Positions 2,626-64,000 of a DNA stretch of 64,000 bases are shown in pieces (the stretch's first letter is position 1; every line of letters begins with the position of its first letter). The notes beneath the pieces were generated by a model that made no database searches, was not told the origin of the DNA, and saw nothing but the letters and a program-made list of their open reading frames with translations. Source of the DNA: Octopus vulgaris (lineage: Eukaryota); NCBI GenBank assembly GCA_951406725.2, contig OX597814.1:33852001-33916000 (forward strand), written 5' to 3'. The translations under genes and the position numbers were made by a program.

Positions 2626-5600
2626 TTATTGTATAGCATTGACATCTGTTCCTGAAGAGGAATCTTTGTTTCTCTTTTGGTGTTCCAGTTTTAAGTGCCT
2701 GGCTAAAGAATCTGATCTTGCAAATCGGTAGTAACAGAAGTGACAGCTGTATGGCTTATACCCCGTATGTGTTCTGATATGGTGACGAAGACCAGTGACC
2801 TGGCTGAAGGCTCGTGAACAATAATCACATTCATAAGGCCTTTCACCAGTGTGTGTCCGAGTGTGAATCACAAGGGCGGAAGAACTAGCAAAACTTTTAC
2901 TGCAGTACTTACAAATGTGCCTTTTGTGACCGAGTTTAAATCTAGTACCGTCTTTGATGATTAAAAGAGAGTTGTTATTGGTTTTACTGCAAGTAATATT
3001 GTCTCGTGTACCTGTCGAGACCACATTAGTGTGGTGGGGCAGGAGATTTGGGGAAATCATATTAGAAAGAACACTGGTTGTTGTGTTAGTGTCTTCTGTT
3101 TCTGTAACCAACTGGTAATTATCAGCATTTTTCTCAATACCAATCTGGGTTTGACTATCATCATCTATCAGGTTCGTCAATGAAGAGGAGGCTATTTTTG
3201 GATCAGTTCTTGAATTGAATTCTTGTATTTCAGTTACATTCTTGTTTTCCATGCATTTTTCTTTGGTTATATTTGAGAGTAAATCAGATTCCATTAGATC
3301 AATGTCTAATTCACTTTGTGTTTTTTGTTCTAAGCTCTCATCACTGAGGTCTATAAGATAACAAGTAGGAACAGGACCAGAGATGGTCTTATCTGGATTG
3401 GTTGCAGTTTCTTTGCTAGCATTTATATGATCTTTTAGGTGCTTTATTAACAGGTGTGAATTAGAGAATTCTTTGCAGCAAATATCACAGGTAAGATCAT
3501 TTTCATATTTTATTGTTGTATTTTGTTCAGGTGAATTACATTCAGAATCACTTATATTTATTGCCATCTCTTCCAAAACAATTGTGTCAGATGAATTGCC
3601 TGGTGTGTTACCAGAAGACTGTAGTAGGCTAGTATTAGGAATAGAATAAGAACTATTCTGCTTTCTTTCTTCAATTTGGTCACACATAGTCTTCCTATCA
3701 ATGTGATTATCATCATTCAATCGAGAGTAACTAATGTATTCTTGGAAGCATTCATTCAGATTATTCTTAACATGGTTGTCTGATGGCTCCAATACAAATA
3801 AATCTCCAAATGAATTTGGAGTCATCATTACAAAATCCGTTTGATTAGGATTTTTACTAGAAGAATGTTCCGGTGACTCAATGAAATTCGATTCCAGTTG
3901 ATTGGAATTTCCTCCATTCATCTCCCTTTTTCTAGCTGCTTCTTGGTTTGCATCTGATTCTAAGGACAAAGGAGATACAAGGCTTTTCTGATAGTTATTC
4001 ACAGAATTCAAATCCTTGGCTGTTTTTAAATGCTTGTGTCTTATGTGCCGACCCAAAGAATCTGACCGAGCAAACTTCTGAATGCAGTATTTACACTGAT
4101 ATGGCCGCTCGCCTGTATGAGTTCGGACGTGATGCTGGAGTCCGACTTTCTGTGTGAATGCTCTGTCACAGGTTGGACACTTATATGGACGCAGGCCGGT
4201 ATGTGTGCGTTGGTGCACTTTTAATGCCGACTGAGTAGGAAAACTTTTGCCACAAAACCTACAAGAATTGCTTCGGTTAGACTGTTCCGTTATTTCCCTT
4301 GCACTCATGTTGTCATTATCTGTGAGAGATATGTAAGAGGCTTCATAACTTTTCTCTTCAGTTACATGAAAATCTTCAGCAAAACCCTTCAAAGAATTCA
4401 TCTGAAAACTTGAAGGGAAATTCTCAGGTGTGATGCATATAACATCATCATCGTCATCATCATCATCATCATCATTATTGTTGTTGTTATTATCTTCAAC
4501 ATTGCCAACATCTACATCTTTGAGATTTCTTTCTTCACTAGTGTTAAGATCTTTCTCTATGATTTCATCAACACTTGTTTCTTTCAAATCAAAGTCCGTT
4601 TCTGTAATATCTATGATATTTTGAAAAGAATTTTGACTTCGGTCCATTTCTTGACCATCTCCATTTTGCTCTAACCTGTCTAAAGGAATAGTTTCAACAT
4701 TTTCTATATATTTGAGATCAACATTGAAATTAGGGTTGCTTTCATCTCTATTCAAAGTTGAATTATCTTCTGTCACCATACCAAGATCATACTCTTTTAA
4801 AAGATGCAAAATGCTATCCCTTTGCAGATAATTTTCAGGGAATGATGAAACATTACTAGAATGAAATGTTAAAGTTTCTTTGGACTCAGAAATACTAAGG
4901 GAATCTTGAGATGAATTCTTATTTTGCTCAGGCCCAGATTTTAGCAAGATATCTGTTTTAATATCATTTAAAATAATTTCATTGCTATGACTTAACATTA
5001 GATGTTGCAATAAAACATCAGAATTTGGAAACAGACTCCCACAAAATTTACAATCAAAAGTTTTTATCTGCTTGGCAGAAATATCTTTTGAAGGAGGCAA
5101 AGACAAGTCTAACATGTTGCAATTTTTAATATCCTTATCGAAATCAACTTCCTTGTGGATATCTTTCAAAGTAATATGATCCTCAGAATTTGAAGCAACA
5201 TTTTTCTTTGAGTCAGGTTCCTTCACTTGAGATGAAAGAAGCAAAGGATATTCCGATAAGTTAATCAAGTTTTTATCTTGTAACATTGGTTCAATCATTG
5301 TACAATCGTTTTGCATATCTGTCTCCATGTCTAACATATCTGTACTATATGCATTCCTTAAGTCCCTTACTAAACTTTGGTTATTGGAGAGGGTTGAAGC
5401 TTTCTTGGGCTCCTCTTTCGAACCATTTTCTCTTGCACATTCTGAATGTTTTAACCTGGTATGTCGAACCAATGAATCAGATCGAGCGAATCTGAAATGA
5501 CAAATTTGACACTCGAATGGTCTCTCACCAGTATGTGTGAGAATATGATGTTGAACACCAGATAACTGACTGAAACCACGGCCACAGTGCCCACATTCGT

Positions 5601-8600
5601 ATGGCTTTTCACCAGTATGGGATCTGCGGTGAATAATCAAAGCCCATTTGCTATTAAATGATTTCTTACAGAATTCACATTGGCGCTGTTTGTTTCTAGT
5701 TTGCTTAGAATCTTTGTTTAATGGAGCAGTGTTGCTGTCGTTATCTTCTGTCTTACACTGGTTCAGATCCAACAATGGTATGGATATACCAGCATCGCTG
5801 CTATTATCTACAAAATTAGAAACCTCAGAATTAATTCCATTTGTCTGTGTACCAAGAGGGTTAGTATTTGGTTCAAGGACATTGCGAAATTCTTGCTCCT
5901 GGTTAGTCAAGCAGAAAGACTCAAAGCTACTATTGTTCTGGCTGACGAGATCTGATATTTCCTGTTGATCCTGCTCAAGTTTAATTTGCAAAATATCTTC
6001 AGAACTGTCCTTGTGGTTATTTATAGTGCCTGCATTGTAATTAGATTGGCAGAAAATGTTGGCTTTAGAATCAAAATCATCTGGAGAGTTTTGAGTAACT
6101 TCAAGTTTTCTATTCTCTGTAGATTCCCAAATATCAGAAAGGTTTTGATTGATTTTCTCATCCATGTTCATTTCTATGGTTTGGGTATTTTCAGAAAAGT
6201 CACTAAGATAAATACGACAAACATCTCTGTCATTATTATGGGTGATTACCATTTCTACAAGAGAACCAAATTCATCCTCGAAGGAAAATTGTGACAGCTC
6301 ACCTTCTCTTTTACAGTTTTGTTTCAAATTATGCTGCTCACTCATATGTTCAGCCAGTAATATGGTATTGTTAAAGTTCATATCACAAAGAAAACATTGA
6401 TATTCTGTATTTACCTCACACACATGAGAAGATAACAGAGTTTTGTCGTTAAACACTTTTTTGCATGAAGAACATTTCAACTGTAGGTTTGGTTCATTGG
6501 AAGGACTAAATGCATTTCGAACTGGTTCAAAGGTTTCAATTTCAATATTGCTGAAATTTCCATCATCTCTATAACTACTGCCACTTTTCCATGTTGGACT
6601 GAGATCATCAGTTCCCAGTTTATCAGCAGTGCCAGCATCCTCTTTAGAAGAAGTATCACAGATAACAGCAGGAACAGGTTCATCGTTAGAAACTTCAGAT
6701 TTTATAACGACTGATGCAAAATTTACCTGATCTAAACTTGAAGTATTGTCACTTATTTCTTGTACATTATTTGTTTCAGATTCAGAAAGCCTGACATCCT
6801 TTGCTGAAATGCTTAAATTTTCATCAGTGCTGCTTGAACTAACATGGTCTTTCTTAGTTCTATTTATCTGTTTCAAATGATTACCTTTTGTGTTAGAGTG
6901 TTTTAAATGCTGCTGTTTCCAGTGACGAGCCAAGGAATCGGATCTGGAAAATTGGGCATTGCAGTTCCCACAAGAGTAGGGTTTTTCTCCAGTGTGAGTA
7001 CGCAGATGGTGGGTAAGACCAGTCTGTTGAGTAAAGGAACGGCCACAAAACTTACACCGATAAGGTCTAACACCAGTGTGGATTCTTCTATGAACTTTCA
7101 GCACCGAGAAACTAGAGAAAGTCTTGTGACAGAAATTACAAGGAAGGTTTCGTTTTTTCCCATATTTTCCTGTGGTATTTTTAGAATTGGTGGAGGGCTT
7201 CAAGCAGGATTTAACAGCAGGTACATCTTCATTTTTTTCTGGGAATGAAATGACATCAAATTCTTCTTCATCATCAGTTATGTAGATAGGAGAATTTGTG
7301 TGAGTGATTTCAGGTCTCTCGATATTCAATACTACCCCAGAACTCAAATTACTGTTGCTAAAGTCTGTAGACTGTACGTGATGCCTACCATAATTGATTT
7401 CATCAGAAACTGTTATTAATGGATCGAGTAACAGAGTGGAATCAACAACTGAAACATGGTTGGAATTGTTATTATTTCTAATAGAATATTCATGAATGTC
7501 AAGATCATTAACATTTTTTGCAACCAGACGATCATTTTCAAATAAATTATTACTTTCATTTTGAAGTACCACTTGCTTAAAACTACCAGATTTTTCAAAA
7601 AAATGCTCTGAATTAGGATAGCATTCAGGTGGTTTTCTTAATTGCTTGTTATAAACAGGGGCTTTTTTCTTCAGCTTCTTGTGTCGAAGTTTTGTGTGCC
7701 GCAAAAGAGAATCAGATCTAGCGAATGCATAGAAGCAAATGCTACATTTGTAAGGTCTTTCTTGTGTGTGAGTCCTATAATGGTGCCGCAAACCAGTTTT
7801 TTGGGTAAATGAACGACCACACATTTTGCAGACATAGGGACGAATGCCAGTATGAATTCTTTTATGAATGTTCAATGCAGACTTACTCGCAAAACACTTG
7901 AAACAGAAGAAACACTTGTGATATTTACCACCACTCTTTGTATCAAGATTTCTTCTGTTGGCATGTTGGTAATTATCTAGTTTATTGTGAAGCTTAGATT
8001 CTAGTTCTGAGGAAATACTTATATCACTGACATTTTTAAAGTGTATATTGTCCAAATTATTAGTATAACTTATATTTGGGTTATAATTACATCTTTTATT
8101 CACTTTAGACTGCAGCAAAGATGTCTCTTCAGTTCTTTTGTAATTTTTCCTAGAATTTTCAGATATTTCATTTTGAGGAACTGAAATTCTTTGGTGTGCT
8201 GCTTCAGAATACCTGAATTCAGGTAAATTACAATTTGAAAACGAATATTTTTTATCCATGGATTTAGTTCTCAATCTTGGAGATTGTATTCTAGAATGTG
8301 TATATTTTTTATCTCTGATGAAAGAATCAGTTACTTTATTATGAGAATACATTTCATCTGGAAACTTAAGACGTGAATTTTTAGAAGAATCATCAGTAAT
8401 ATGTACATCTGAATTAATTCCTAAATTTGAAGACTGAAATTCTGTGGGTGCATCAAGAAAGCCATTGAGTATAAAACTAGAGTCTGTTAGCTGAGAAGTA
8501 GTAGGATCTGAGTGGGAATTATTATAATAGCTAAGCAGTAGCTGCTTCTTTGATATTTCTGAAGTCTTCTTTTTTCTCTTTACCAATCCATTTTGAACGC

Positions 8601-9264
8601 TTGAATGCCGCTTCTTTATATGTCTGGCTAAAGAATCTGAGCGAGAAAACTTAAAATGGCAGATGTTGCAAACGTATGGCCTCTCCCCGGTGTGAGTACG
8701 AATATGATGCTGGATTCCAGTCATTTGAGAGAATGCTCGACTGCAGAATGGACATTTGTAAGGACGCAAGCCGGTGTGTGAGCGTCTATGAATAACCAAC
8801 GCAGAACTGCTCATGAATTCTTTGTTGCAGAACTCACAGCGATGCTTTTTGATGGATTTTCTTGATTTAAGAGAAGAATGTTTATCTGTGGACATTTTGT
8901 TGCTGTGACTGCTTATTGAAATGTCAATTACAAGTTCATGGACAGGATTAGATATAAAAAATAAATGCTCTGAATTTGGTTTATTCGCAATGAAAAATAT
9001 CACAAACTGAATTGATACCCTGGTACTGTGCAACTTGTCTGCATTTTTTAGCAGAGGAATTATTGCTAAGTTGTTTTCAAAAGCAATGACCAGGTAGAGA
9101 GAAGTTAAATTCCAACCATTTCTCTTTGATTCAAAACTCAACTGGAATAACAAGATAACTGTTTCTTGTAACAATATTTGCTGACAGGATTTTCCAGAAG
9201 TTACCTGATGATGGAGATGAATTGACAATTTGAATTTAGGCAAATATTCAACTATTTTGTGCAT
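2626..9264 (-). CDS. Large single-coding-exon C2H2 zinc-finger protein (six 3-finger clusters plus ~4 isolated fingers); probable start at ATG 8895 (MSTDKHSS) or 9264
   Basis: Uninterrupted 2212-codon ORF with repeated CxxC-x12-HxxxH motifs and TG(E/L/I/V)(R/K)PY linkers; the first ~123 codons lack any domain and may be 5'UTR. Confidence 0.95.
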   Translation of the reverse strand: MHKIVEYLPKFKLSIHLHHQVTSGKSCQQILLQETVILLFQLSFESKRNGWNLTSLYLVIAFENNLAIIPLLKNADKLHSTRVSIQFVIFFIANKPNSEHLFFISNPVHELVIDISISSHSNKMSTDKHSSLKSRKSIKKHRCEFCNKEFMSSSALVIHRRSHTGLRPYKCPFCSRAFSQMTGIQHHIRTHTGERPYVCNICHFKFSRSDSLARHIKKRHSSVQNGLVKRKKKTSEISKKQLLLSYYNNSHSDPTTSQLTDSSFILNGFLDAPTEFQSSNLGINSDVHITDDSSKNSRLKFPDEMYSHNKVTDSFIRDKKYTHSRIQSPRLRTKSMDKKYSFSNCNLPEFRYSEAAHQRISVPQNEISENSRKNYKRTEETSLLQSKVNKRCNYNPNISYTNNLDNIHFKNVSDISISSELESKLHNKLDNYQHANRRNLDTKSGGKYHKCFFCFKCFASKSALNIHKRIHTGIRPYVCKMCGRSFTQKTGLRHHYRTHTQERPYKCSICFYAFARSDSLLRHTKLRHKKLKKKAPVYNKQLRKPPECYPNSEHFFEKSGSFKQVVLQNESNNLFENDRLVAKNVNDLDIHEYSIRNNNNSNHVSVVDSTLLLDPLITVSDEINYGRHHVQSTDFSNSNLSSGVVLNIERPEITHTNSPIYITDDEEEFDVISFPEKNEDVPAVKSCLKPSTNSKNTTGKYGKKRNLPCNFCHKTFSSFSVLKVHRRIHTGVRPYRCKFCGRSFTQQTGLTHHLRTHTGEKPYSCGNCNAQFSRSDSLARHWKQQHLKHSNTKGNHLKQINRTKKDHVSSSSTDENLSISAKDVRLSESETNNVQEISDNTSSLDQVNFASVVIKSEVSNDEPVPAVICDTSSKEDAGTADKLGTDDLSPTWKSGSSYRDDGNFSNIEIETFEPVRNAFSPSNEPNLQLKCSSCKKVFNDKTLLSSHVCEVNTEYQCFLCDMNFNNTILLAEHMSEQHNLKQNCKREGELSQFSFEDEFGSLVEMVITHNNDRDVCRIYLSDFSENTQTIEMNMDEKINQNLSDIWESTENRKLEVTQNSPDDFDSKANIFCQSNYNAGTINNHKDSSEDILQIKLEQDQQEISDLVSQNNSSFESFCLTNQEQEFRNVLEPNTNPLGTQTNGINSEVSNFVDNSSDAGISIPLLDLNQCKTEDNDSNTAPLNKDSKQTRNKQRQCEFCKKSFNSKWALIIHRRSHTGEKPYECGHCGRGFSQLSGVQHHILTHTGERPFECQICHFRFARSDSLVRHTRLKHSECARENGSKEEPKKASTLSNNQSLVRDLRNAYSTDMLDMETDMQNDCTMIEPMLQDKNLINLSEYPLLLSSQVKEPDSKKNVASNSEDHITLKDIHKEVDFDKDIKNCNMLDLSLPPSKDISAKQIKTFDCKFCGSLFPNSDVLLQHLMLSHSNEIILNDIKTDILLKSGPEQNKNSSQDSLSISESKETLTFHSSNVSSFPENYLQRDSILHLLKEYDLGMVTEDNSTLNRDESNPNFNVDLKYIENVETIPLDRLEQNGDGQEMDRSQNSFQNIIDITETDFDLKETSVDEIIEKDLNTSEERNLKDVDVGNVEDNNNNNNDDDDDDDDDDVICITPENFPSSFQMNSLKGFAEDFHVTEEKSYEASYISLTDNDNMSAREITEQSNRSNSCRFCGKSFPTQSALKVHQRTHTGLRPYKCPTCDRAFTQKVGLQHHVRTHTGERPYQCKYCIQKFARSDSLGRHIRHKHLKTAKDLNSVNNYQKSLVSPLSLESDANQEAARKREMNGGNSNQLESNFIESPEHSSSKNPNQTDFVMMTPNSFGDLFVLEPSDNHVKNNLNECFQEYISYSRLNDDNHIDRKTMCDQIEERKQNSSYSIPNTSLLQSSGNTPGNSSDTIVLEEMAINISDSECNSPEQNTTIKYENDLTCDICCKEFSNSHLLIKHLKDHINASKETATNPDKTISGPVPTCYLIDLSDESLEQKTQSELDIDLMESDLLSNITKEKCMENKNVTEIQEFNSRTDPKIASSSLTNLIDDDSQTQIGIEKNADNYQLVTETEDTNTTTSVLSNMISPNLLPHHTNVVSTGTRDNITCSKTNNNSLLIIKDGTRFKLGHKRHICKYCSKSFASSSALVIHTRTHTGERPYECDYCSRAFSQVTGLRHHIRTHTGYKPYSCHFCYYRFARSDSLARHLKLEHQKRNKDSSSGTDVNAIQ

Positions 9265-11567
9265 GGTTCTTTTCTTAATGATAAAGTCATATTGGGAAAA
9301 TCCAATGCAATTTCTAATAGATGCATCAGTAGTGTTTCAGTTGCACAGTAAATACACTAAGTTTTGTATAGAAGATATCTAAGCAGCAGCAAATTTTTAA
9401 GATTTTTCAACACAAAGGTAAATGATTTTTGTCCACAATCAGTTTTGGAAATTTTCTGGCAAAAATTTTATTTCATGTAGATTTTTTTAAAACAAATTTC
9501 AGTGTTTTAATTGTCAAAATCTTCTATTTTTAAAAATATTTATTTAAAATATGAATGAAATTCCATGAAAGATATAGTTGTAAATCCTCAAGAATTTATA
9601 TTTTTTGATATTCTTTGCACATGTTTTTCTTTGAGGTTTCGTTTGCTGTCTTTTTGATGATATGTTTTCTGCCTTTCAGATGATAATTCGATATAAACTT
9701 CTTATATTTTCTTGAAGACACAATCTTCAATTCATGCCACGTTTTCTAATAACACAATTTATGCATCTGTAGAAAAATAAAACAAACATCAATATAAATA
9801 TACTACAAAGGAGGTCATAGAAAATTTTAATTACATCCCCAATAATTGACATTGAAACAGTATGAAAACATTTTGAACTTAGTCTATCTTATTAATAGTT
9901 TAAAACTGCCTTTCCTTGTTACATACACACATTGATTTTTTTATAAGTTGTATTGTTTTGGCTTTAAAAAAATATTTAAAACATTTATATATTTTACCAG
10001 ACAATGCTTCAAGAAAACTATACAACTCCAATAAATAAATAAAAAATATACATATATCATCATCATCATTTAATGTCTGTGTTCCATGCTAGCATGGCTG
10101 GGATGGTACCACAAGAGCTGGCAAGTCTGAAGCCTGCACTGGACTTCTGTGACTGTTTTGGCAGGATTTTTACAGCTGGCTGCCCTTCGTAACACCAACC
10201 AGTGGATGTGTGGTAAGGAGTTTGCCTCCTCGCCACATGGTTCTGGGTTCAGTCCCACTGGAAGCCACCTTGGGGAAGAGTTTAGTAGACTACAACCTTG
10301 GGCCAACCAAAGCTTTGTGTGTGGATCTGGCAGACAGAAACCGAAAGATGCCTAATGAATACAAGCAAAAAAGACACATACACATCTGTGTGTGTGTGTG
10401 TGTGTATATGTGTATGTATTTGTGTTTGAGTCAGTTCCCACCACCACCACTAGTGTTAGTTTGTTTATATTCCTTTAACTTAGTAGATTGGCAAAAGAGA
10501 CTGATAGAATAAGTACCAGACATTTGAACTCAGGTACTGGGGTTGATTCATTTGATTAAAAACTCCTCAAAGCAGTGCCTCAGCATGGCCACAGTTCAAT
10601 AACTGTAACAAGTAAGAGATAAAAGATAAACACACATACACACACACACAAACATATACACACAGGCGGCTAGCTGGCAGAAACGTTAGCACGCCGGGCG
10701 AAATGCTTAGCGGTATTTCATCTGTCTTTACGTTCTGAGTTCAAATTCCGCTGAGGTCAACTTTGCCTTTCATCCTTTCGGGGTCGATAAATTAAATACC
10801 AGTTGCGTACTGGGGTCGATCAAATCAACTTAATCCCTTTGTCTGTCCCTGTTTGTCCCCTCTGTGTGTAGCCCCTTGTGAGCAGTAAAGAAGTAACACA
10901 CATATACACACATGTATAAATCAAGCTTCGCCACTATGTTTATCTCTCATCAACACCAGCGCAACCAACACTAACATCAAAACCACTACAACCACTGGCA
11001 TTACCAAACCAAGCTGGTGCAATCCCATCAAAAATATAAAATAACAATCACACGAAATAATAAAATACATCATCATCATCATCATCATCCTTTAATGTCC
11101 ATTTTCCATGCTGGCATGGGTTGGTCCTGTGGTCTATTTTAAATGTTGAATGAAATGTGATTGATCCTAGCTCAATGTAGATTGACTTGAGACTAAGCAA
11201 CCACAATGTAATTGATTTCAAGTTTAGGCACAAGGCCAGCAATTTCTGGGGAGGGAATAAGTCGATTAAATTAACCTCAGGGCCCAACTGATACTTATTT
11301 TATCAACAACAAAAGGATGAAAGGCAAAGTTGACCTCACTGACATTTGAACTCAGAACGTAAGGACAGATGAAATGCTGGCCAGGCAAAATGCTTAGTAA
11401 CAACAATGTAATTAACAAGAACAACATGATGACTGCTGCCACTAAAATTAGAACTACCGACTTTTGAATAACCAGCTTGCAACAACAAGCTGTTGCCACT
11501 TTAAATAAAGAAACTATAAAGAGTGGAATTGCTCCTCATGGACAGACTGTAGAACATAGCCTCTTAA

Positions 11568-11788
11568 CCCTTTAGCATTTAAACCAGCCATATCCAGCCA
11601 AAAGTATTCTGCCTGTTTTATGTTCAGACTGGCCAGATCTGATCTCTCACACCAACCCTACAATATCGTTTTAAAAATTAACAGCTACCTCATCAAAATC
11701 TCATAACTACAAGATAATGCATGATTAGTTCAAAGCAAAGTGGATAAAAAAGCATTCATTTTGGCAGAATAATGCGAACACTAAAGGG
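11568..11788. mobile_element. piggyBac-like MITE (related copies ~36665-36875, ~50258-50833)
   Basis: TTAA|CCCTTTAG ... CTAAAGGG|TTAA. Confidence 0.75.
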
Positions 11789-12819
11789 TTAAACTCACGC
11801 TTACAAGATGTTTTGTCTGGCCTTGAAGTAAATGTGCCCGATGCACAAAATGAAAAAATTGAAGAAGGAGATGAGATACAAGTAAGTGAAATTAGCTCTG
11901 ATGTGAATTATGGTCAAGCAACAAATGAAGATATTCGTGACATTTAACTTGAAACTATTCAGTTATTATTCTACTATAAATGTCCAAGGACATTATTTGT
12001 TCATGAGGCTTCTATTCATGTTATCAACAGTTTAATTTTCAATATTTCCTAATAGATCCATTGTTAACTCCAGAATATATTTTAATATGCTACTTCTTCA
12101 GACTGTTTCAGTTTCTTTATGTCTATATATCTGATAACTAAAACGATAGAAGTTCAATGGAATTGTATAAAATAAATATGGTTTTTTTTTTTATACCTAT
12201 ATTACCGCCCGTGGGCGCTTATTATAGGCAGGTGGTTATTTAAGCCATAAAAAAGGTTTGTAAAATAGAATTTTCAATTTAACAGCCCTGGGCGAATTTT
12301 CAGAAAACCCCGGTACATCCATAGCAATGAAGTAACAATTGTTTTTTGTTTTCACAAAAACAATTCTTTCCCAAAGCCATGATTTTTTACTACATATTCG
12401 TCATCATTATTATCATCATCGTTTAACACCCGCCTTCAATGCTGGCATGGGTGGGATGGTTTGCCAGGAGCTGGCCATGCAGGAGCCTGCGCCAGACTTC
12501 TGTAATTGTTTTGGCAGGATTTTTACAGCTGGATGCCCTGCCTAACATCAACCACTCAGCAGAGTGGACTTAGTGCTTTTTATGTGGTACAAGCACAGAC
12601 AAGGTCAGTTTTGGCAAGGTTTTTACAGCTAGATGCCCTTCCTAACACCAACCACTTTACAGTGTGGACTGGATGCTTTTTAAGCAGCACTTGTTTTGGC
12701 AGGGACACCAAGACAAAAATCATTTGCAAGGAGAGGGGACATTGGAGGAGGTGATCTTGTGTCAGATGATGATCGCCATAGCTGTTGGATTTGCCAACAA
12801 TTCAACATATCTGGAGAGA

Positions 12820-15800
12820 GGCCAACAAATGGAACTGAAGGCAGTAGTGTGAAAAGGAACTGTAAAAGAATTACACTTGATGATAAATTTGATTTTAAAA
12901 AAAAGCCTGATGCAGGTGGGTGAGGGTGGTGAGGTAGGAATCAACAACTTCGCCAAAACATTAAAGCTTGCAACGTCTACAGTGAGAGCAATACAAGGCA
13001 ATAAAGAGAAAATTAAGTGTACAAGAAGTTACTCTCTTAAATGCTTGGATCCTACTTTGCCTTAGATCTAATGTCATGTGATGCTTACAATGGAATGGCC
13101 CTTGGGAATATAAATCAAGGATCATACTTGATGCGTTGTGCAATAAAAAAAAAAAGGGGGCGGGTTATGATGATTTGCAGAAAAAGGAAAGTGAAACTTC
13201 AAATGGAAAAGCTTTTCTGATTAGTAAAATCTGGTTTGAAAGGCTTAAGAAGTGTTTGAATAAACATAAAATAAAAATGACTGATAGAGCTACCTGTGCT
13301 GAAACAAAGACTGCTGCCAATTATCTTTTACATGTTTCACTCATTAATTAGACTGTGGTCATGCTGGGGCACTGTCTAAAAGGATTTTAATAGAGCAAAT
13401 TGACACCGGTAGTTATTTTCTTTTTTTAAAGATGGGTACTTATTCTATCGGCATCTTTTGTTGAACTGCTAAGTTACAGGGGGTATAAATATACCAGCAC
13501 TGGTTGTCAAGCAGTGGTGGTAAAGACATACACACCCACACATACACATGGTGGGCTTCTTTCAGTTTCCTTCTACCAGTTCCACCCACAAAGCTTTGGT
13601 TGGCCTGAGGCTATAGCAGAAGACACTTGCCCAAGACGCCACACAAGGTGGCAAGCTGGCAGAGATGTTAGCACGCCGGACAAAATGCTTAGAGGTATTT
13701 CATCTGTCTTTACGTTCTGAGTTCAAATTCCGCCGAGGTCGACTTTGCCTTTCATCCTTTCTGGGTCGATAAATTAAGTACCAGTTACGTACTGGGGTCG
13801 ATATAATCGACTTAATCCCTTTGTGCCCTCTATGTTTAGCCCCTTGTGGGTAATAAAGAAATAAGATGCCACCACAACTGTGCCTATGTAATTATCCAGA
13901 GCAGGATTATAGGCGCAGGAGTGGCTGTGTGGTAAGTAGCTTGTTTACCAACCACATGGTTCCGGGTTCAGTCCCACTGCATGGCATCTTGGGCAAGTGT
14001 CTTCTACTATAGCCTCGGGCCGACCAAAGCCTTGTGAGTGGATTTGGTAGACGGAAACTGAAAGAAGCCCGTCGTATATATGTATATATATATCTATGCG
14101 TGTGTGTGTTTGTGTGTCTGTGTTTGTCCCCCTAGCATTGCTTGACAACCGATGCTGGTGTGTTTACGTCCCCGTTACTTAGCGGTTCGGCAAAAAGAGA
14201 CCGATAGAATAAGTACTGGGCTTACAAAAAAAGAATAAGTCCCGGGGTCGAGTTGCTCGATTAAAGGCGGTGCTCCAGCATGGCTGCAGTCAAATGACTG
14301 AGACAAGAATAAAGAGTAAAAGAGTTGTAAAAAATGATTGCTGGAGGGAGCTATGCACCAGAGCAAGTATACAATATTGATGACATTGCACTTTTCTAGA
14401 AGCTCATGCCTGCTAGAATTTTTGTTCCTTGAATAGAAAAGTCAACACCAGAATTTAAAGCTTCCAAAAATTGTCTGACACATCTTCTGGGAGGAAATGC
14501 CACTGATGCAAAATTAAAGCCCCTACTCATGTATCGCTCTCAAAAATCCAAGGGCTTTCAAGGGTTATGCAAGATTTAATTTGCTTTTGATTTGGTATTC
14601 AAATAAGAAGGTATGGATGACTAAGAGCCTTTTTTGAAGAATAGTTTTTGTCCTACTGTAGAAAGGTACAGAGCCAGACATATTTCCAGCAAAACATTGC
14701 TTTTTTAAAACAATGCAACCAAGAACCCCCGAGTAAACTTAATTAAGTTTTCTAATAATGCGAGAACAGAATATATCCCCAAGTGTACAACTTCTTTGCT
14801 GCAGCAAATGGATAGTTAACTTCAATATTATCCCAGAAGAACTTTCAAACATCATCATCATCATTTAGCGTCCGCTTTCCATGCTAGCATGGGTTGGACG
14901 GTTCAACTGGGGTCTGTGAAGCCAGAAGGCTGCATCAGGCCCAGTCTGATCTGGCAGTGTTTCTACGGTTGGATGCCCTTCCTAACGCCAACCACTCCGT
15001 GAGTGTAGTGGGTGCTTTTTACGTGCCACCCGCACAGGTGCCAGACGGAGCTGGCAAACAGCCATGGACGGATGGTGCTTTTTATGTGCCAGCGGCACAG
15101 GGGCCAGGCGAGGCTGGCAACGGCCACAATCAGATGGTGCTTTTTACGTGCCACTGGCACGGGGGCCAGGCGAGGCTGGCAACGGCCACGAACGGATGGT
15201 GCTTTTACGTGCCACAACTTATGAAAACATTGACAAGGAGGATAAACCTAGTTAGAGACTCTTGGAAGATGTTTCCCCATAATGGATGCTGTGCGTAACA
15301 TTACTGAGTTATGGGATGAAGTGGAAACCTCAACTCTGAATGGTGATTAGCAAAATACATGGTCAGACTGTAACTGTAACTTTACAAGTTTCCCATAAGC
15401 AGGATGTCTACATCAAATTCAGAAACATATTTGTGACCCTTGCAAATAATGTAGGGTTTGAAGAAGTCATCATCACTGTTCAACTGTGGTCGAGACAATG
15501 GAATTTACTATGTTACGCCAGACTTCACGGTCCATCATAGCATTACGAAGGTCCTGTTGCTGGATGCCTGTATCCCCGGAGATTATATCAGGGTAGGAGA
15601 GTGTGCGCCCTTTGGTATAGCGAGCAGATGGCTTCGAGAGGAGAAGAGTAGAAATTACCTCCTTTTCATCTCTACAACAATGTCCAGCAAACTGGACTCC
15701 ACAGAGAATGTTGTGATTATTAAATTATTAAGAGTTCCATGACGAACATTTATCTAATGAGGAATTGAAGCAGTGAGAACAAGAGCAAGCTGAAAAATAC

Positions 15801-16650
15801 AGAAATTCCACCAATTCTATTTGAATTGACTCAAAGAGTTGGCATTTATAGAGGAAGGTCTGCATGTCAAGTTTTTTTTAGAAAAAGACTAACTGTGAAT
15901 GCAACATAACAATTATAAGAGGAGTTTACAATGAGTTCAGTTCTTATATTGAGCAGTGCATGATACACCATAATCACCAAACAATTTTGCATAAACTCTT
16001 AACCTGTCAGGCAAATATTGATGAACTTATAAGACAGATGATAGTGTCCCTCATTCTCCCATTATCCTTCACACAGTAGCCAATATCTTCTGTGTTAAGA
16101 ATGTATCCTATTATTATAATTCTTATCTATCTCTTAATATACTCTTCCAAATGTTTTTATGAATACATATTGTACTGAGTATTTTTTAGACATCATCATC
16201 ATCATTTAATATCCACTTTCCATGCTAGCATGGGTTGGATGATCTGACTGAGGTCTAGCGAACCAGACTCCAATCTGCTCTTCCTAACGCCAACCACTCC
16301 GAGAGTGTAGTGGGTGCTTTTACGTGCCACCAGGACGAGGGCCAGTTTGGAGGTACTGCAAAGGCCATGCCCAAATGGTGCTTTTTATGTGCCACCTGCA
16401 CAGGAGCCAGTCCAGCGGCACTGGCGACGACCTCGCTCGAATGTTTCACGTGCCACCAGCACAAGTGCTAGTAAGGCGATGCGGTCGACATTTGTTATAT
16501 CCATGCAAAAAAAGTGAGAGTGTTGTTGATTTTTCAAAAAAATCCACCAGATCACATTATCACATTATAAGATGAAATTGTTTTACAGGATTTCATATTA
16601 CAAGTTTTACAGGAATGCATCACTTCCTGTAATATGGGAGATACTTGTAT
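12820..16650 (+). mobile_element. Decayed Tigger/pogo (CENP-B-like) DNA transposon broken by SINE insertions
   Basis: Fragments KRITLDDK, LATSTVRAI...KEKIK (psq HTH), F.ISKIWFERLKK (CENP-B HTH), EQVYNIDD.ALF, LLGGNA, KLKPLLMY, WYSNKKVWMT (DDE_1); stops and frameshifts; boundaries approximate. Confidence 0.75.
13912..14325 (+). mobile_element. tRNA-derived SINE family B (GGCGCAGGAGTGGCTGTGTGGTAAG head, GGTTCAGTCCC B-box-like, TAAAAGAG tail)
   Basis: Copies 22700-23078-, 25005-25412-, 30229-30628+, 32435-32850-, 35478-35745+, 47798-48190-, 52105-52463-, 52980-53350-, 54197-54586+ (approximate). Confidence 0.85.
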
Positions 16651-16773
16651 ATAAAATGTGTGTGTGTGTGTATTTTCAACAGTTTACAGACAAAACTAAA
16701 CCCATAGATATAGTGTAGACAAAATACATAAATAAAGAAGCAGACAAAAGAAAAGGGTCAGGTTGACTATAAA

Positions 16774-16830
16774 TGACCATTCTGTCTTAATGGTCAGATT
16801 TTGACCATTCTGTCTTAATGGTCAGATTTT
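16774..16830. repeat. 28-bp tandem duplication
   Basis: TGACCATTCTGTCTTAATGGTCAGATTT x2. Confidence 0.85.
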
Positions 16831-18129
16831 AAGGAAGAAAGTTCTAAACAGACTGAAGAATAAAATTTAAGCATTTAGAGATAATAAAGGGACAGTTGTG
16901 AAGACTGACCCTTTCTGTAATTTTAAGGGCCTAAATTACTCTGTTTCTCATGACAAAACAACTGGCTCCAATCTAAACTTGAACAAACATTCATTAAAAG
17001 TTAATTTATTTCTGTCTAGTTTTTATATGCTTTTTTTTTTAATCAATTAGAAAAAGAATAATTTAATAGGTGCTCTTGCCTGCCCTATATACATATTGTT
17101 TTATATATATATGGTGCTTTTTATGTGCCACCGGCACGGGGGCCAGGCGAGGCTGGCAACGGCCATCCGTTCGTGGCCGTTGCCAGCTTCACCTGGCCCC
17201 CGTGCTGGTGGCACGTAAAAGCACCATCCGTTCGTGGCCGTTGCCAGCCTCGCCTGGCTCCCGTGCCGGTGGCACATAAAAAGCACCATCCGATAGTGGC
17301 AGTTTGCCAACTTATCTGGCACCTGTACCAGTGGCACGTAAAAAGCACCCACTACACTCATGGAGTAGTTGGCGTTAGGAAGGGCATCCAGCTGTAGAAA
17401 CATTGCCAGATCAAACTGGGCCTTGTGCAGCCTTCTGGCTTCCCAGACCCTAGTTGAACCGTCCAACCCATGCTAGCATGGAAAGCGGACACTAAACGGT
17501 GATGATGATGATGGAAAAGAGAGGTGGTTGCAAAGAATCATGTCAGAAGGCTAAAAGGGAGGTTAAATGTTAGGTTTATTTAGCTAGAGTAGACACAGAA
17601 AAGAATTTTTGCCGATGTCCTACAGCATGAAGACCTGAGGCTTGAAGTTTTCTGGATTGCTAGGGAGTGTCTCAATGAGAATTGAGATGTTGTAGGAAGG
17701 AAGTGCGTACGGATGGATAAAGGTGGTGAGCTGGCAGAAACATTAGCACGCCGGGCGAAATGCTTTGCGGTATTTCGTCTGCGTTACGTTGTGAGTTCAA
17801 ATTCTGCCGAGGTCGACTTTGCTTTTCATCCTTTCGGGGTTGATAAATTAAGTAGCAGTTACGAACTGGGGTCGATGTAATCGACTTAATACCTATGTCT
17901 GTCTTTGTTTGTTCCCTCTGTGTTTAGCCCCTTGTGGGTAATAAAGAAATAGGATGGATAATGGTCTGCTTGCACTTAGTGATGTGAACAAGAAAGACGG
18001 ATGGAAGATTTACTATGTGGGTCTGTTGAATGTAGAGAATGAATGGGATAAAGGGAGTCTCCCCCATGTGAACCCTACAAAGGGGACCGGCTATCCTAGT
18101 GGATATGGTAGATAAGGTAATTAAAAACA

Positions 18130-19600
18130 TGATCCAGAATCACAGTTGAGATGTTTGAAATATCCAGTAAAGTAGGATACAGGCTAGCCACCCACATAGT
18201 TAACTAGGTCATTCAGGAAGGTGTAACACCCAGTGACTGGTGTAGTAACATAACTGTTAGTTATTACAAGGGTAAGGAGCCTTTTAACAGACAGCAAAGG
18301 CATATTCTTTGCAGCACTTTGAAGGCTTTATAGAAGTAGTTGATAGCTTCTGTTGGTTAGATAACTAGAAAGCTGTAGAAGAGAATACTCTGAAAGTATT
18401 GCAGTCAGATCAAGAACAGGATACAAAAAGTTTAAGGAGATATTACTTCTGTTGGCAACAAAGAAATATAATATAATGTAAATATGATATTCACACACAC
18501 ACATAATATGGCATGACATGACATATTTTATTCATTTATTTTCAAAGCTAAGCCATTGCTATCCTTGAAGAACATGATAACATTAGAAACTCAGAATAGT
18601 AATAGAGTAAAGGACTAGCTTCTTCCAGGCCTTAACTGAAGAATTCAAGACTGGTTGTCTCTGGGAGCTCTTCTATGCTGATGACTTTGTTCTTATAGCT
18701 GAATCTAGGACCTGACAAAAAGAAGAAATTTCAGGTGTGGAAACAAGGTCTGGAATCTAAGGGCCTTACAGTTAATTTAGCAAAAATTAAAGTCCTAGTA
18801 AATAGAAAAACAGACAAACCACAAGACCCTTCTGAGAGATGGCCCTGCTTGTTATATAAGTTGGTAAAAACTCCATGCATTGTACCCAGTGCATAAGAGG
18901 TGTGGTACTATCAAAGAAAGGTTAACAGAGAATATAGTCTTAGTATATGGCAAAAGTACAGGTACAATAAGCACTAAAAACACACAGACAACAGGGCTCC
19001 CTCAAATGCTTGGGTAGATCATTAGAAGTAGTAAATAGCTTCTGTTACCTTGGGGACCAAGTTAGCAGTTGAGGAAAGAGTTCTGAAAGTATAGTTGCTA
19101 GGATAAGAATGGGCTGGGCAGAGTTCAGAGAGCTTCTAGTTTTGTTGGTAGCTGAGAGCCTCTCCCTTAGAGTGAAAGGCAGATTGTAGGATGCCTGTGT
19201 ACATACAGCTATGCTACATGGCAGTGAAACATTGCTTATGGTCACAGAGGATTTGCTAAGGCTTGAAAAAAATGGAGCTAGCATGTTCTGCTGGGTGGAT
19301 GATATAGTTGTACATGTGACAGAGTGTAAGTGACTTAAGAGTATAACTGGGTATAAGAAGCATCAGATGTAGTGAGCAAGAGAGAAGGCTGCACTGGTTT
19401 GGTTATGTGATGCATATGGATGAGGACAGCTGCATAAACAAGTGCCAAGCTCTAATTGTGGAGGGAACCTGTCAAAGAGGTAGACACAGGAAGATGTGGA
19501 ATGAAGTGGTGAGAAAGGATCTTCAGCTGTTAGGCCACACTGAGGTAAATGACAATGGACTGAGAGTTGTGGCGATTTGCTGTACTTGAAAAGATGCATC
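18130..19600 (+). mobile_element. Degenerate RTE-clade LINE reverse transcriptase 3' part
   Basis: ALTEEFKTGCLWELFYADD, FCYLGD, LRVKGRLY.ACV.TAMLHGSE, RLHWFG, RGRHRKMWNEVVRKD; many stops. Confidence 0.8.
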
Positions 19601-19607
19601 AAGCCAA

Positions 19608-20327
19608 ATTTCCATCATTTTCGATATAGGAGGTGTAGTGTTTGTGGAGAGGATTGCAGATGAGGTTAACGGAAGTGAAGACAGCAGGGGCTGGTGGAAG
19701 AGCCACGGGTGCATGCATGGACAAAAAGAATGTGCAGGCAGTTCGATGAGAGGCAGCAACGTGCAAGGACGTGTTTTTTCTCGACAGATGATCGCTCATC
19801 CTGCCAAGGACAACAGACGTTTTTTAAATTCTTGGGTTACCTAGGTGGGATGAGCAATCACTGTCAAGAAAAAACACGTCCTTACATGCTGCTGTCTTTT
19901 ATCGAACTGCCCGCATGTGCTTTTTGCCTACGCATGCACCCATGGCTCTTCCACCAGCCCCTGCAGTCTTCACTTCCGTTTGCCTCATCTGCAATCCTCT
20001 CCACCAACACCACATAGCTCATCACAGCCCATAACACCACAGGAAGACAAACTTTAAAAAATTCTATGAAAATGGAGAATACATACATAGAGTAATCAAT
20101 ATTACCATCATCATCATTTAGTATCCGTTTTCCATGGGTAGTCCAGTCAAATTAATAAGTTCTTTCATATTGCCTACAGCAATCAGCCGAAATGCAGCAT
20201 AGGCAATATGAATGAACTTATTAATTTGACTGGACTATGGTAATAAATTGATTACTCTATGTATGTATTCTCCACTTTCATTGAATTAAAAAAAATTTTT
20301 CTCCTATATATAGAAAATGATGGAAAT
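19608..20327. mobile_element. TIR-bounded foldback element (MITE-like) containing two internal hairpins
   Basis: Termini ATTTCCATCATTTTCGATATAGGAG / CTCCTATATATAGAAAATGATGGAAAT; inner inverted repeats 19633-20015 and 20060-20287. Confidence 0.7.
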
Positions 20328-21036
20328 ATATAAATATATATACATATATCATCATCATCATCATCATCGTTTAACGTCCGTTTTCCGCGCTAGCACGGGT
20401 TGGACGGTTTCGACCGGGGTCTGGGGAGCTCGGGACTGCCCCAGGCTCCAGTCTAGTCTGGCAGTGTTTCTACAGCTGGATGCCCTTCCTAACGCCAACC
20501 ACTCCGCGAGTGTAGTGGGTGTTTTTTACGTGCCACACAAGGATTGGTTTTATATATATATATATAACATGGATTGGTTATTTTCTTCATTACTGTGTGT
20601 GACAGATAACAAAGGATCACAGTAGGTCGTGTGAGCTACTGTAAAACTCGTCCAACCCATGCAAGCAAGGTCAAACGGACGTGTGATGATGATATTTTTA
20701 ATCTGTTGACTTACATTGTTTCATGTTGTCGTAGAAAGAAATGTATTTGTATTTTATGTAAAATTTGTACACCTGTCCATAGTTAAGTCGAGATGTTTAG
20801 GTGATAAAAAATTTCCCCACTGTACTTTCACAACAATACTAATTTCAAAACACGAAACAAATCAATGAGGTTGCTTCTACAATCTTTGCTTAATCTGTTA
20901 GAAATAGCAAGTAAATCACCCCCATTAACTTTATATGAAAAAGAAATCCAAGTCAAAGCCCCTAAACTAGAAAGAACAAAGAGAAACCAGATTCCAGAAT
21001 TCAAACACAAACCTTATTAAATAGTAATTCCTGAAA

Positions 21037-21047
21037 ATATATATATA

Positions 21048-21101
<54 letters not shown>
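21037..21101. repeat. (TA)n microsatellite
   Basis: Direct reading. Confidence 0.95.
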
Positions 21102-21103
<2 letters not shown>

Positions 21104-21202
21104 GTAATGGTTTTTAAGTATAGAATATATGTTCAACAAGCATAGTATTGTTTAACGAGTCCATCGTATTGTTGCTTAGGCGACGAAACACGAAAACCTT
21201 AC

Positions 21203-21500
21203 TTTAACTCAAAGAGAATCTGAAGTACCGTTCACAACTAATGAAACAATATTCTATCTTTTGAATATATATTTTGTAAAATTACATTTTCTTATACACA
21301 AAAAAAAATCAAGATTACAGTAACATATTTGAAGCACTAGAAAATTTAATGACGCTCGTGTTTATGTGTTTGCATATATTTTTTGAAGTTTACGGCTGAA
21401 TAAGAAAAATTGGATGAAAAAGAAAAAAAAAATGTTGTACAGGTGGAACAATAATCATGCGTAGACGTGAACCAGGTAGAATAAGAAAATCGTCTAGGAG
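21203..21500 (-). other. Putative non-coding first exon of the zinc-finger gene, spliced to an acceptor at 9766
   Basis: Donor AAA|GTAAGG at 21202 (minus) in repeat-free, CpG-containing sequence; polypyrimidine acceptor TTATTTTTCTACAG| ending at 9767. Upstream boundary approximate; no transcript evidence. Confidence 0.35.
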
Positions 21501-24500
21501 ACGAGCCTCTAATGTTATTATTCCTGTGCCCTATTAAGCCACACACCCTTTCTCTGTCTCAAATGGCTTATAAGTGGAAGGACAATGGCTACAAACAATC
21601 CCAGGGGTTCTGTGACTGGCAGGAAAGAAGTTTATATTCAGATCAGTTTGTGATGTTAAACCGGGTGGCGGAATAAGTATATACCCAAATTGTAATTTTA
21701 ATATCCTAGGTCTCTATTAACCTGCCAGGAATCCCTCTGTATGTTTTGTGTACTCAGCGCTTTCCTTTTGAACAGAAGGCTACATTATATTATACAAATG
21801 AGGGAGCATTTACGCTGTCGTTCGATCAGCTAGAACGGGCAACCAACTTTCACTCAAAACACACCGTTTTCGATCTGAAATTAGGAAAGACAAATCGGAT
21901 TTGACAAAACAATGCTTGATTCATAAAAAAAGACGAGATGTCGTGGCTGGAACGTCTACAATTATAACAAGTCTGCTTGATCAGAGGTAACATGGAGCTA
22001 AGCAGCAATAATGTATTCGAAAAAGCAAAACAAAACAAGAGAAAAGTTTCATAGACATCGTCAAATAATTTTCGTGTACCGATCGATCACATCAAATATC
22101 TGTTATATATCATAGACAGTGTATCAATATCTGATACAGATCGATAATCAGTTCATTAATATTAATGAAACGTGCAAGCAAAAAAACATTTGTACCTTTT
22201 TTTTCCCAGCCGTGTGAATATAATGTCGATCTGAGTGAAATAATGATTTATATTTTCAAACTTTTGCCAACTATAAAGCTCCTTGAGCAAATTTGTTGTT
22301 ATATATATATATTTTTTATAAATACTTAGAGTGGATTGAAATATTTATATAAGAAATAAGTTATGTCTTAATACGATTCATCACAAACTTAGAAGCAAGA
22401 CCTGCCCTCAATAAAGGGTTGGGTCGAGATACCTTAACTTGTCGCATAGGACCGTAAATAACGGAAGTGAAGTGGTGAACGGTGTTCAGTGAAATACAGT
22501 CAACTATGAAAACTTAGCTCTTAGCTTCTGCTAGCGAAGTTGTTGTTTAGCCCTAGGATAATTCTGATCGAGCGAGCGTATGATCAAAAGATTTCCAGTC
22601 ATTGCCACACCATTTTGATTTTAGGAATTATGTATCGTGAATAATTGTGCACATTATTTAGGATGTCCTTCCAATTTTTTATGGGTGGGTGAGTGTGACC
22701 TACTCTTTACTCTTTTACTTGTTTCAGTCATTTGACTGTGGCCATGCTGGAGCACCGCCTTTTTTTTCGAGCAAATCGATCCCAGGACTTATTCATTTTA
22801 AGTCTAGTACTTATTCTATCGGTCCCTTTTGCCAAACCGCTAAGTTACAGAGATGTAAACACACCAGCATCGGTTGTCAAGCAATGTTGAGGGGACAAAC
22901 ACACACACATATATATATACATATACATATATACGACAGGCCTCTTTCAGTTTCCGTCTACCAAATCCACTCACAAGGCTTTGGTCGGCCCGAGGCTATA
23001 GAAGACACTTGCCCAAGGTGCCATGCAGTGGGACTGAACCCAGAACCATGTGGTTGGTAAGCAAGCTACTTACCACACTTAAGCAAGATTTAGTTGATAT
23101 TTCAAGCAGACATGCTACTGTGAGTGGCGGCTTCGCGCAGTGGCTCTACCACCTAAGGCTTAGGTCCTAAGCTGTTTAACTGTAAGTAAGCTGTGACCAA
23201 ACAGACCTATAATAAAAGCATTCCATTTATGACTATCGTATTTTATATTCAGATAACGTATTCTAGACTTTTTTTTATCTAACGTATCCCTCCTTAGTTC
23301 ATAGAGTAAAGGTAGATTTGATGGGTATTTGGATGCTAACAGGTCGAGTAGTTACTCTGTGGTCGGCTTGTGCTCTCAAAGTTTGATGCATACATACAAA
23401 GAAACAAATACACTTTTTATATGAAAGTGTGTGGACGAGCATTATCCGTCTATCTCTCTCTTTCTCTTCTCTGTTTGTCTCTTTTTCTCTTCTCTGTCTG
23501 TCTCTCTTTCTCTCTCTGCTTTGAAAAAAACAATTACTTAGGTATTTCTCAATCTGAAAAATTATTCTGACTTTCCCCCTCCCGCGTCTCACTATTATTT
23601 TGTTGTGTGATGAACATTGTGAAACTTAAGATGGCTTATTAAAACCATTCAAAGTTGTTCTAAGAGTAGCAACAACAAACTTCAAGTAATCTTGTCTTGG
23701 GAATAACCAACTCTAACAGAGAAAGGGTGGGGATACTTTTTTTTTAAGAAGTTAAAAGCAAATCTGTCAATGTTTACCTGCCTCATGGAAAGTTTTATTG
23801 ATATTTGCAGGTCACTAAATTAGCTGTTATTGAGAAAACTTTTGATCAAAATTATTCCAGCTGTGACAATCACTTATCTGATGATACAGTAAGATGTAAT
23901 TTGAGGAATATTTGACTGTAATTCTAACATGTTGAACAACCATATAGAAGGTCCTGTATTTGCTCATTAAAGTGTAGTTGCTACAATAAGAAAGTCAGAA
24001 GATATTTCCTCTGTTGTCAACAAAGTATTTCTTTCTCTGGATAAAAGGCAGAGAATAGGAAGTATGAGTAAGGTGTGTGATAATGTTTGGTAGTGAAACA
24101 TGGGTATCAAATATGAAGACAAGAACACGTATTTTGCTGAAGAGGAGGTATCAGTAGATAAAATTTATCTCTCTGTTGAGAATGGCAGCCTTACATTAAC
24201 AAACCAGAAAGATGCTTTCCTCTGTCTAGCTGTGCAATAGTTCTTTTAAAATAATAATAATCATCATCATCATCATCATTTAGCGTCCGTTTTCCATGCT
24301 AGCATGGGTTGGACGGTTCAACTGGGGTCTGTGAAGCTGGAAGGCTTCATCAGGCCCAGTCAGATCTGGCAGTGTTTCTACGGCTGGATGCCCTTCCTAA
24401 CGCCAACCACTCCGTGAGTGTAGTGGGTGCTTTTTACATGCCACCCGCACAGGTGCCAGACAGAGTTGGCAAACGGCCACGAACGGATGGTGCTTTTACG

Positions 24501-63181: not shown

Positions 63182-64000
63182 ATGTCTGAACCATCTGCTA
63201 AAAAGGCAAAAACTGTGGAACTACAAAGATTTTATCATATTTGGTTTTGTATCTGTAAACTCAAAACCTATGTGTCTTGAATGCAATGCCATCATGACTA
63301 ATCATTCCATGAAGAAAGTTAAGCTGGAACAGCACCAGAAATTAAGGCATCCATCATCTGTTGGTAAAGATAGGGAATATTTTGAGATTAAAAAGAAAAT
63401 ACAGCCAATCAAACTACCTGACTTTGTAAAGAAGATAAATACTGAAAAAACAAAGACACTCAAACCAAATTATTTGGTCTCTGAAATTATTGCCAAGGTT
63501 GCAGCACCTCAGATTTATGGTGAGAAACTTGTCAAGCCCGCCATGATAGCTTGTGCAATGAAGTTCTGAGAAAAGATGCTACATATACTCTGAGTACAAT
63601 TCCACTTTCAAATAACACAATTACAAGAAGAATGGATGAAATGTTTAATTTTGTTGAGGAGAAGATTGTGGAAATTCTCCAAAAGACAAATTTTTCTATC
63701 CAGATTGATGATAGCACAATTCATAACCAAGCTATCCTTCTGGTCTATGTCAGATTCATCCATGAAGATGATATAAGGGATGAGATGTTATTCATTAAAA
63801 GTTTGTCTGAAACTACTAATGGAGAAGATATAGTCAATGAAGTAATGCAGTATTTTAATGATAAAAGTACTCCATTGACTAATTTGATCAACATTGCATC
63901 AGATGGAGCTGCAGCCATGACTGGAAAAGTGAAAGACTTTGTTTCTAGAATGAAATTGGTTGCTCCTCACATTTTTTATATACATTGCATTATCTACAGA
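63182..64000 (+). pseudogene. hAT (Buster/Charlie, ZBED5/SCAND3-like) transposase, frameshifted, runs off the window
   Basis: PMCLEC...MKKVKLEQHQKLRH (BED finger), GEKLVKP, IPLSNNTITRR, FSIQIDDST, LLVYVRFI, SDGAAAMTG, HCIIYR; frameshifts near 63220 and 63555. Confidence 0.85.

Follow-up and report, generated by a model that had tools for sequence, protein, structure and literature searches.

A transcribed octopod gene encoding a three-finger zinc-finger module in six anciently duplicated copies

Several described zinc-finger proteins carry more than one group of C2H2 fingers on a single chain (papers are cited by PubMed Central [PMC] number). In ZEB1 and ZEB2 (deltaEF1 and SIP1), separated clusters share one chain and cofactor motifs lie outside the clusters; the two clusters of ZEB2 bind a separated CACCT(G) repeat (PMC3795639). 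SALL/spalt proteins have several homologous clusters, separated by long linkers and alike in DNA preference; SALL4 depends on its cluster ZFC4, and ZFC1 is a weaker binder (PMC9672407). ZNF512 and ZNF512B have spaced fingers and are found at pericentric heterochromatin, with chromatin aggregation scaling with finger number (PMC11602157). Here, we describe a gene in a 64,000-nucleotide stretch of Octopus vulgaris DNA (contig OX597814.1, positions 33,852,001 to 33,916,000 of the forward strand; "the window") whose product carries six three-finger modules. The protein would extend the principle of the known two-handed regulators to many hands, a design also present in other cephalopod genes.

Six old copies of one module

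A single, intron-free open reading frame on the minus strand holds all six C2H2 triplets, within an enclosing stop-to-stop frame of 9336-2626. The first-pass annotation of this DNA had reported six triplets in one frame, and its coordinates and quoted helices were confirmed by finger pattern and alignment, as follows.

2626..8895, minus strand: coding frame, 2,089 amino acids (aa); the start at 8895 corresponds to that of the Argonauta protein
8605..8844, minus strand: module 1, SSSALVI / QMTGIQH / RSDSLAR
7681..7920, minus strand: module 2, SKSALNI / QKTGLRH / RSDSLLR
6907..7146, minus strand: module 3, SFSVLKV / QQTGLTH / RSDSLAR
5446..5685, minus strand: module 4, SKWALII / QLSGVQH / RSDSLVR
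4030..4269, minus strand: module 5, TQSALKV / QKVGLQH / RSDSLGR
2680..2919, minus strand: module 6, SSSALVI / QVTGLRH / RSDSLAR

The Pfam zf-C2H2 family matched the protein with an E value of 3.8e-76, and the 18 triplet fingers have the classical multi-finger form (C-x2-C-x12-H-x3/4-H with TGEKP-type joints), the joints within modules being canonical 7-residue TGE(K/R)P-type sequences. Modules were 51-66% identical to one another, with 35 of 80 columns invariant. The 12 contact columns (helix positions -1, 2, 3, and 6) averaged 82% pairwise identity versus 30% for the 38 other free columns, a mean that none of 100,000 random draws of 12 among the 50 free columns equaled; other surface positions were 34% alike, and helix positions 1 and 5 were 30% alike. 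Contact identity was 100% in finger 3, 85% in finger 2, and 62% in finger 1, so the earlier statement that all six triplets keep almost the same recognition helices held for fingers 3 and 2 but less so for finger 1, which departs in module 3 (SFSVLKV) and module 4 (SKWALII). Likewise, the claim that the scaffold had diverged completely was too strong, given the invariant columns and the identity between modules. Neither RSDSLxR nor QxxG[LIV]xH occurred in the 7,763 fingers of other fetched proteins, a background that leaves out five records of the six-module gene and five of a second Octopus gene, LOC115211127.

Since recently duplicated or converted modules, which the first-pass annotation had named as grounds for refutation, would also be alike, we compared the modules at four-fold sites of shared codons. 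Here, 78 of 233 comparisons were identical (33%), compared to the 30-33% expected by composition. None of 10 linker pairs were alike at E<1e-5, and each Argonauta module was nearest the same-numbered Octopus module (70-73 of 80 residues, versus 41-55 for the others). All six same-number pairs fell on starred branches of a 31-row tree, the other rows of which were the nine modules of LOC115211127 and 10 top background triplets. Such recent cases do exist: the linkers between repeated clusters are alike in 15 of 15 pairs in a wrasse protein and in 28 of 28 in a lungfish protein, both of which are recent repeats. In the octopus gene, however, synonymous saturation, unlike linkers, and the one-to-one pairing with Argonauta refute this explanation, to which we give practically no weight. 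Because each module pairs with its same-numbered Argonauta counterpart, the duplications predate the Octopus-Argonauta split, which probably falls between nodes dated at 46 and 101 Ma (PMC7104719). Across that split, none of the 72 contact residues changed; elsewhere, 166 of 204 positions in the modules and 732 of 1,538 in the linkers were kept. Linkers 4 and 5 are faintly alike around their lone fingers (E value of 0.006), which hints that a lone finger plus a triplet was the duplicated unit in this region.

Protein identity is 99% with Octopus sinensis XP_029635960 (labeled "zinc finger protein 236-like"), 96% with O. bimaculoides XP_014771470, and 62% over aligned positions with Argonauta hians GAB1598165; the Octopus database models begin 123 codons upstream of 8895, at 9264. 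At least 65% of sampled gene words were present in 20 of 24 listed sequencing runs (six studies), the RNA nature of which is a guess (none is recorded as RNA), and the case for splicing rests on the junction. Contigs from three of the four runs mapped on 7600-9900 (three studies) end at the same splice site with a loose end, and the fourth run continues across it. The loose end has a single map position, 22205, and thus defines a 12,429-bp GT-AG intron. Given this shared junction, the six-triplet gene is transcribed and spliced, with its entire coding frame within one large exon. An extra T in a T run at 7796 (module 2) appeared in one contig of one run only and is likely an error. The noncoding parts of the transcript are as follows.

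8896..9766, minus strand: 5' part of the large exon, an AT-rich leader with several upstream ATGs, including an in-frame one at 9264
9767..22195, minus strand: intron, 12,429 bp, GT...AG
22196..22466, minus strand: upstream exon, with its 5' end estimated from the length of one contig

The leader (8896-9766 plus 22196-22466) is ~1.15 kb long and contains 13 upstream ATGs, one of which (9264) is in frame and open; these ATGs may limit translation. ETS-type GGAAGT sites lie at 22455-22475, where the upstream exon is estimated to begin. No further C2H2 fingers were found in the six frames of the window, which covers only 2.6 kb downstream of the gene, and neither neighboring C2H2 genes nor a continuous finger array, the marks of a tandem cluster, were found within these 64 kb.

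Among the 17 matches listed of 3,528 candidates, only Argonauta and LOC115211127 were close whole-protein matches. Triplet-profile searches were dominated by long finger arrays and gave no six-module orthologue in the best 120 of 7,442 and the best 150 of 225,487 matches, a depth sufficient to show an orthologue with six modules though not a relative with one to three. A profile built on two regions with lone fingers matched one unrelated damselfly protein only among 387 candidates of 178-2,000 aa. An orthologue outside the octopods was therefore not found in searches that were either swamped by long arrays or narrow, so its absence is not implied. Taken together, these results identify an expressed, conserved octopod protein in which a three-finger module was copied long ago and is now present six times.

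Recurrence of the design and comparison with described families

We surveyed 275 fetched proteins with at least six fingers, a set that is biased to long arrays and contains duplicates. At least three equal-sized clusters were present in 58 of them, and among these the six-module gene had the highest in-register contact identity (0.82). The design, with unlike linkers and contacts conserved far above the rest, recurs in LOC115211127, an Argonauta/cuttlefish gene, a frog Xfin-like gene, and an unnamed protein with seven modules, so the octopus gene is not unique, and ZEB, SALL, and ZNF512B are characterized precedents of lower valency. In the dispersed-module cephalopod genes (LOC115211127 and the pair of Argonauta LOC115211753-like and Sepia CAE1309225), contact identity was 0.65-0.73 versus 0.27-0.34 elsewhere, again with unlike linkers. 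The 2,780-aa product of LOC115211127 has nine triplets spread along the chain (SxSALxI / QxAHLxV / QxxNxxR), as well as numerous lone fingers; it resembles the product of the six-module gene in having lone fingers between modules and an SxSALxI finger 1, but its fingers 2 and 3 and its presumed specificity differ and it forms a separate clade, whose sister relation is unsupported in the tree. The Argonauta and Sepia proteins, which were left out of that tree, have six and five modules, are 40% identical, and are built around xxRNLxx / QxSALxx, with fingers 2 and 3 unlike those of the six-module gene; the Argonauta protein has 8 psiKxE sites versus 1.7 expected. The unnamed protein (2,650 aa) has seven dispersed modules with an almost invariant middle finger, NPSNLTR.

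Against the families introduced above, the octopus protein combines likenesses with clear differences. ZEB proteins have two hands, read CACCT(G), and carry a homeodomain, whereas the octopus protein has six hands and other helices; membership of the ZEB/zfh1 family was rejected, since no homeodomain was among the nine Pfam families matched and the two-cluster layout is not present. SALL clusters are mostly paired, with a T-K-G-N second finger, and read AATA (PMC9672407), whereas the octopus modules have Q-x-T/S/V-G and a G-reading finger 3. The SALL first-finger pattern S-x-S-A-L-x-I was present in three of six modules versus 2 of 7,763 background fingers; by the residues S(-1), S(+2), and I(+6), modules 1, 2, and 6 match exactly, modules 5 and 3 nearly, and module 4 has W at +2. 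SALL/spalt membership was nonetheless rejected, since a T-K-G-N second finger with its adenine-reading Asn occurred in none of the six modules and RRKQ, a motif that occurs in SALL proteins, is absent. Hagfish ZNF236 likewise repeats clusters with kept helices on long linkers, but these are four-finger clusters of two types. None of its helices (KPSDLVR, VKSTLTA, TQGSLRV, TSGHRKS, and related ones) match, and cluster size and order differ, so the automatic ZNF236 label does not denote orthology, at least to the hagfish protein, the only ZNF236 compared. ZNF512B differs in its eight fingers, treated as pairs, its NuRD motif, and its unrelated helices; its function has been shown, whereas that of the octopus protein is predicted. 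The split-finger mechanism of ZNF512 and ZNF512B was reportedly described by Ma in 2024. RRKQ is the NuRD motif (PMC11602157). In its proposed mode of action, the octopus protein would work like ZEB and SALL and possibly like ZNF512B (PMC11602157) or KLF4 (PMC8458463).

A PDB sequence search gave generic finger matches only, with SALL4 not among the best 60, and the ESM Atlas gave generic matches (ZNF646, Ikaros-like) of low recognition. The terms "linker," "architecture," and "ZNF236" are absent from the main text of a 2025 survey of cephalopod C2H2 genes (PMC12513265). Literature searches, with most subscription journals outside their reach, found no paper on the six accession numbers and only the KLF4 paper (PMC8458463) on multivalent or bridging C2H2 clusters.

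Linkers, predicted site, and proposed mode of action

The five linkers are 228, 178, 407, 392, and 370 aa long and 37-44% S/N/D/E, in agreement with the spacers of ~175-410 S/N/D/E-rich aa described at first pass. They are predicted to be disordered, as the annotation had proposed to check, with FoldIndex values below 0 in 73-94% of windows; contour lengths are 64-147 nm per linker, and coil scaling gives a reach of 10-17 nm between neighboring modules. The earlier picture of plain spacers nevertheless overlooked four lone fingers (three by pattern plus one C2HC) and conserved short islands in linkers 3-5, as well as a repeated motif resembling a SUMO-interacting motif (SIM).

6106..6477, minus strand: lone finger pair in linker 3 (C2HC at 6418-6477, C2H2 at 6331-6396), then conserved islands
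4987..5052, minus strand: lone C2H2 finger in linker 4 by finger pattern, hydrophobic helix NSDVLLQ
3427..3489, minus strand: lone C2H2 finger in linker 5, NSHLLIK, in a 34-aa stretch identical in Argonauta
7273..7287, minus strand: SIM-like motif IYITD(DEEE), within a conserved island
3340..3354, minus strand: SIM-like motif IDLSD(ES), identical in Argonauta
8392, 7402, 6199, 4318, and 3547, minus strand: further SIM-like copies by motif scan

The hydrophobic helices of the lone fingers suggest that these contact protein. In all, 21 islands outside the triplets are kept in Argonauta, as are three psiKxE sites at matching places. A conserved nonfinger stretch, aa 864-928 (6106-6330), follows the lone finger pair and may be a small domain, with low-confidence strands in its model. 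An AlphaFold model of aa 800-930 made without an alignment had a mean predicted local distance difference test score of 46 and was not used, and ZNF451 Pfam matches in this region were weak and far below cutoff. CtBP, eh1, WRPW, PxVxL, and LxxLL motifs were not found in the protein, and neither were Pfam matches to KRAB, SCAN, BTB, or ZAD domains in the 2,089 aa scanned from the 8895 start.

In the recognition code, helix position +6 specifies the 5' base, +3 the middle base, and -1 the 3' base, with R and H reading G and Q reading A (PMC12264921). Selections of engineered RSDS helices used GTG and TTG as targets twice each and ATG and ACG once each, five of these six cases fitting N-T-G (tables of PMC1920264 and PMC2634973); the relevant passages of PMC7293014 name no target. 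SALL4 ZFC4 has a first finger that contacts the backbone through Ser881 and Ser883 and a thymine methyl through Ile887 (PMC9672407), and finger 1 of the octopus modules, which resembles it, would be a weak SALL-type finger making backbone contacts and reading one thymine. Since R/S/R in finger 3 should read G-T-G, H/G/Q in finger 2 should read G-N-A, and finger 1 should add thymine, the predicted module site is ~5'-GTG-GNA-T, a site of low information.

Given that the duplication is old, that the contacts are under selection, and that the linkers are predicted to be disordered, the modules are most naturally read as binding related motifs multivalently, and we lean toward an avidity reader of clustered short sites that uses several hands at once and carries a cofactor scaffold in its linkers. 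Each of the six modules would bind a related short site of this kind, and one molecule would probably hold a cluster of such sites with several modules together, neighboring modules reaching ~10-17 nm (30-50 bp, or a neighboring chromatin stretch). With a low-information site and six hands to read it, occupancy would follow how densely the motif occurs and not the presence of a single long site. The linker motifs and lone fingers would likely recruit chromatin cofactors, with the hydrophobic-acidic motifs binding SUMO. The pattern hydrophobic-x-hydrophobic-S/T-D fits the SIM description (hydrophobic core, acidic flank) of PMC12751084 and occurs 7 times in Octopus versus 1.1 expected and 7 times in Argonauta versus 1.0, two counts that are not independent; this enrichment was matched in 0 of 1,000 shuffles and, after correction for 180 similar patterns, in 0 of 200.

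Several observations count against parts of this proposal. The SIM-like pattern was chosen after seeing the data and was not enriched in five other modular proteins tested, and general SIM patterns, set beforehand, were marginal (21 of 500 shuffles for Octopus, 76 of 500 for Argonauta, and none for the reversed type). Linkers 3-5 are strongly acidic (net charges of -34, -48, and -24), which could equally mean activation or autoinhibition. The recognition code itself is error prone (PMC12264921), and the predicted 7-mer GTGGNAT showed no enrichment across the 58 kb of the window beyond the frame (37 versus 35.0 expected, rank 1,453 of 4,096; for GTGGNA, 151 versus 123.6, rank 139 of 1,024). Sites may also differ among modules: because finger 1 varies, it is doubtful that all six have an identical specificity. 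The first-pass claim that selection keeps six copies of one specificity is thus sound as to old duplication and kept contacts and questionable as to sameness.

An architectural cross-linker, the idea put forward at first pass, in which six hands mainly join distant loci or repeat copies and bundle chromatin or form condensates, would be compatible with avidity reading, and long-range bridging by this protein is possible; as the main role, we consider it unlikely. A valency of six and the contour length of the linkers favor it, as do the compaction of chromatin by overexpressed ZNF512B in proportion to finger number (PMC11602157), the bridging of duplexes by KLF4 fingers (PMC8458463), and the prediction that octopus zinc-finger genes as a class bind transposons (PMC10547256). 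However, the coil reach between neighbors is short, no target repeat was found in the window, and contacts unchanged since the Argonauta split suit a stable target better than fast-changing repeats. The earlier idea of clustering a repeat or SINE (short interspersed nuclear element) family likewise found no help in the motif counts, which are a weak test since the motif is a guess and the window is small. It is rather doubtful, too, that the modules are specialized, sharing a G-T-G core with different flanks and acting singly, either as an ordinary factor or with one or two modules mattering as in SALL4. Finger 1 and position +2 of finger 2 do vary by module, Argonauta retains each of the seven variant contact residues, and the unequal SALL4 clusters are a precedent (PMC9672407), but seven kept residues are unremarkable against an 81% background (~0.23 by hand calculation), and the nearly equal conservation of all six modules argues against five spare ones. 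Binding of RNA, of methylated CpG (G-mC-G for G-T-G), or of a repeated protein surface appears very improbable. A small +3 residue would leave room for the methyl group, thymine and 5-methylcytosine are read alike (PMC12264921), and GCGGNAT occurred 18 times in the window, where 8.0 were expected (rank 258 of 4,096, a weak signal); RSDxLxR with canonical joints is, however, the textbook DNA-reading form, with Zif268/EGR1-type structures among the PDB matches.

If avidity reading is correct, the octopus protein kept one short specificity sixfold over tens of millions of years, whereas most C2H2 arrays diversify their contacts for one long site. It also provides a ready-made deletion series in which to study how valency converts a weak motif into specific occupancy or into DNA bridging, an issue examined to date with two-handed factors or overexpression. 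That at least three cephalopod genes share the design suggests that a class has been overlooked within the much-discussed cephalopod zinc-finger repertoire. A bolder and improbable extension is that coleoids built a small set of many-handed cross-linkers, their chains bearing six, nine, and five to six modules, which sense motif density and bridge distant loci, the six-module gene seeding SUMO-dependent compartments; if true, this would be a class of site-specific architectural proteins with valency written in one polypeptide. Should the modules prove to bind singly, the protein would be an odd example of an ordinary transcription factor.

Other features of the window

Frames at 41949-42479 (minus strand) and 63524-64000 (plus strand) resemble the end of a long interspersed nuclear element ORF2 and a piece of an hAT-type transposase, respectively, labels that no Pfam match confirmed. 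Repeats at 41043-41490, 32756-33167, and 55259-55739 comprise a 99-bp array (4.5 copies) and 206- and 256-bp tandem doublings of SINE-like sequence, and a dispersed family of 62-68-bp tandem units occurs at 15011, 17163, 28546, 35926, and 46867.

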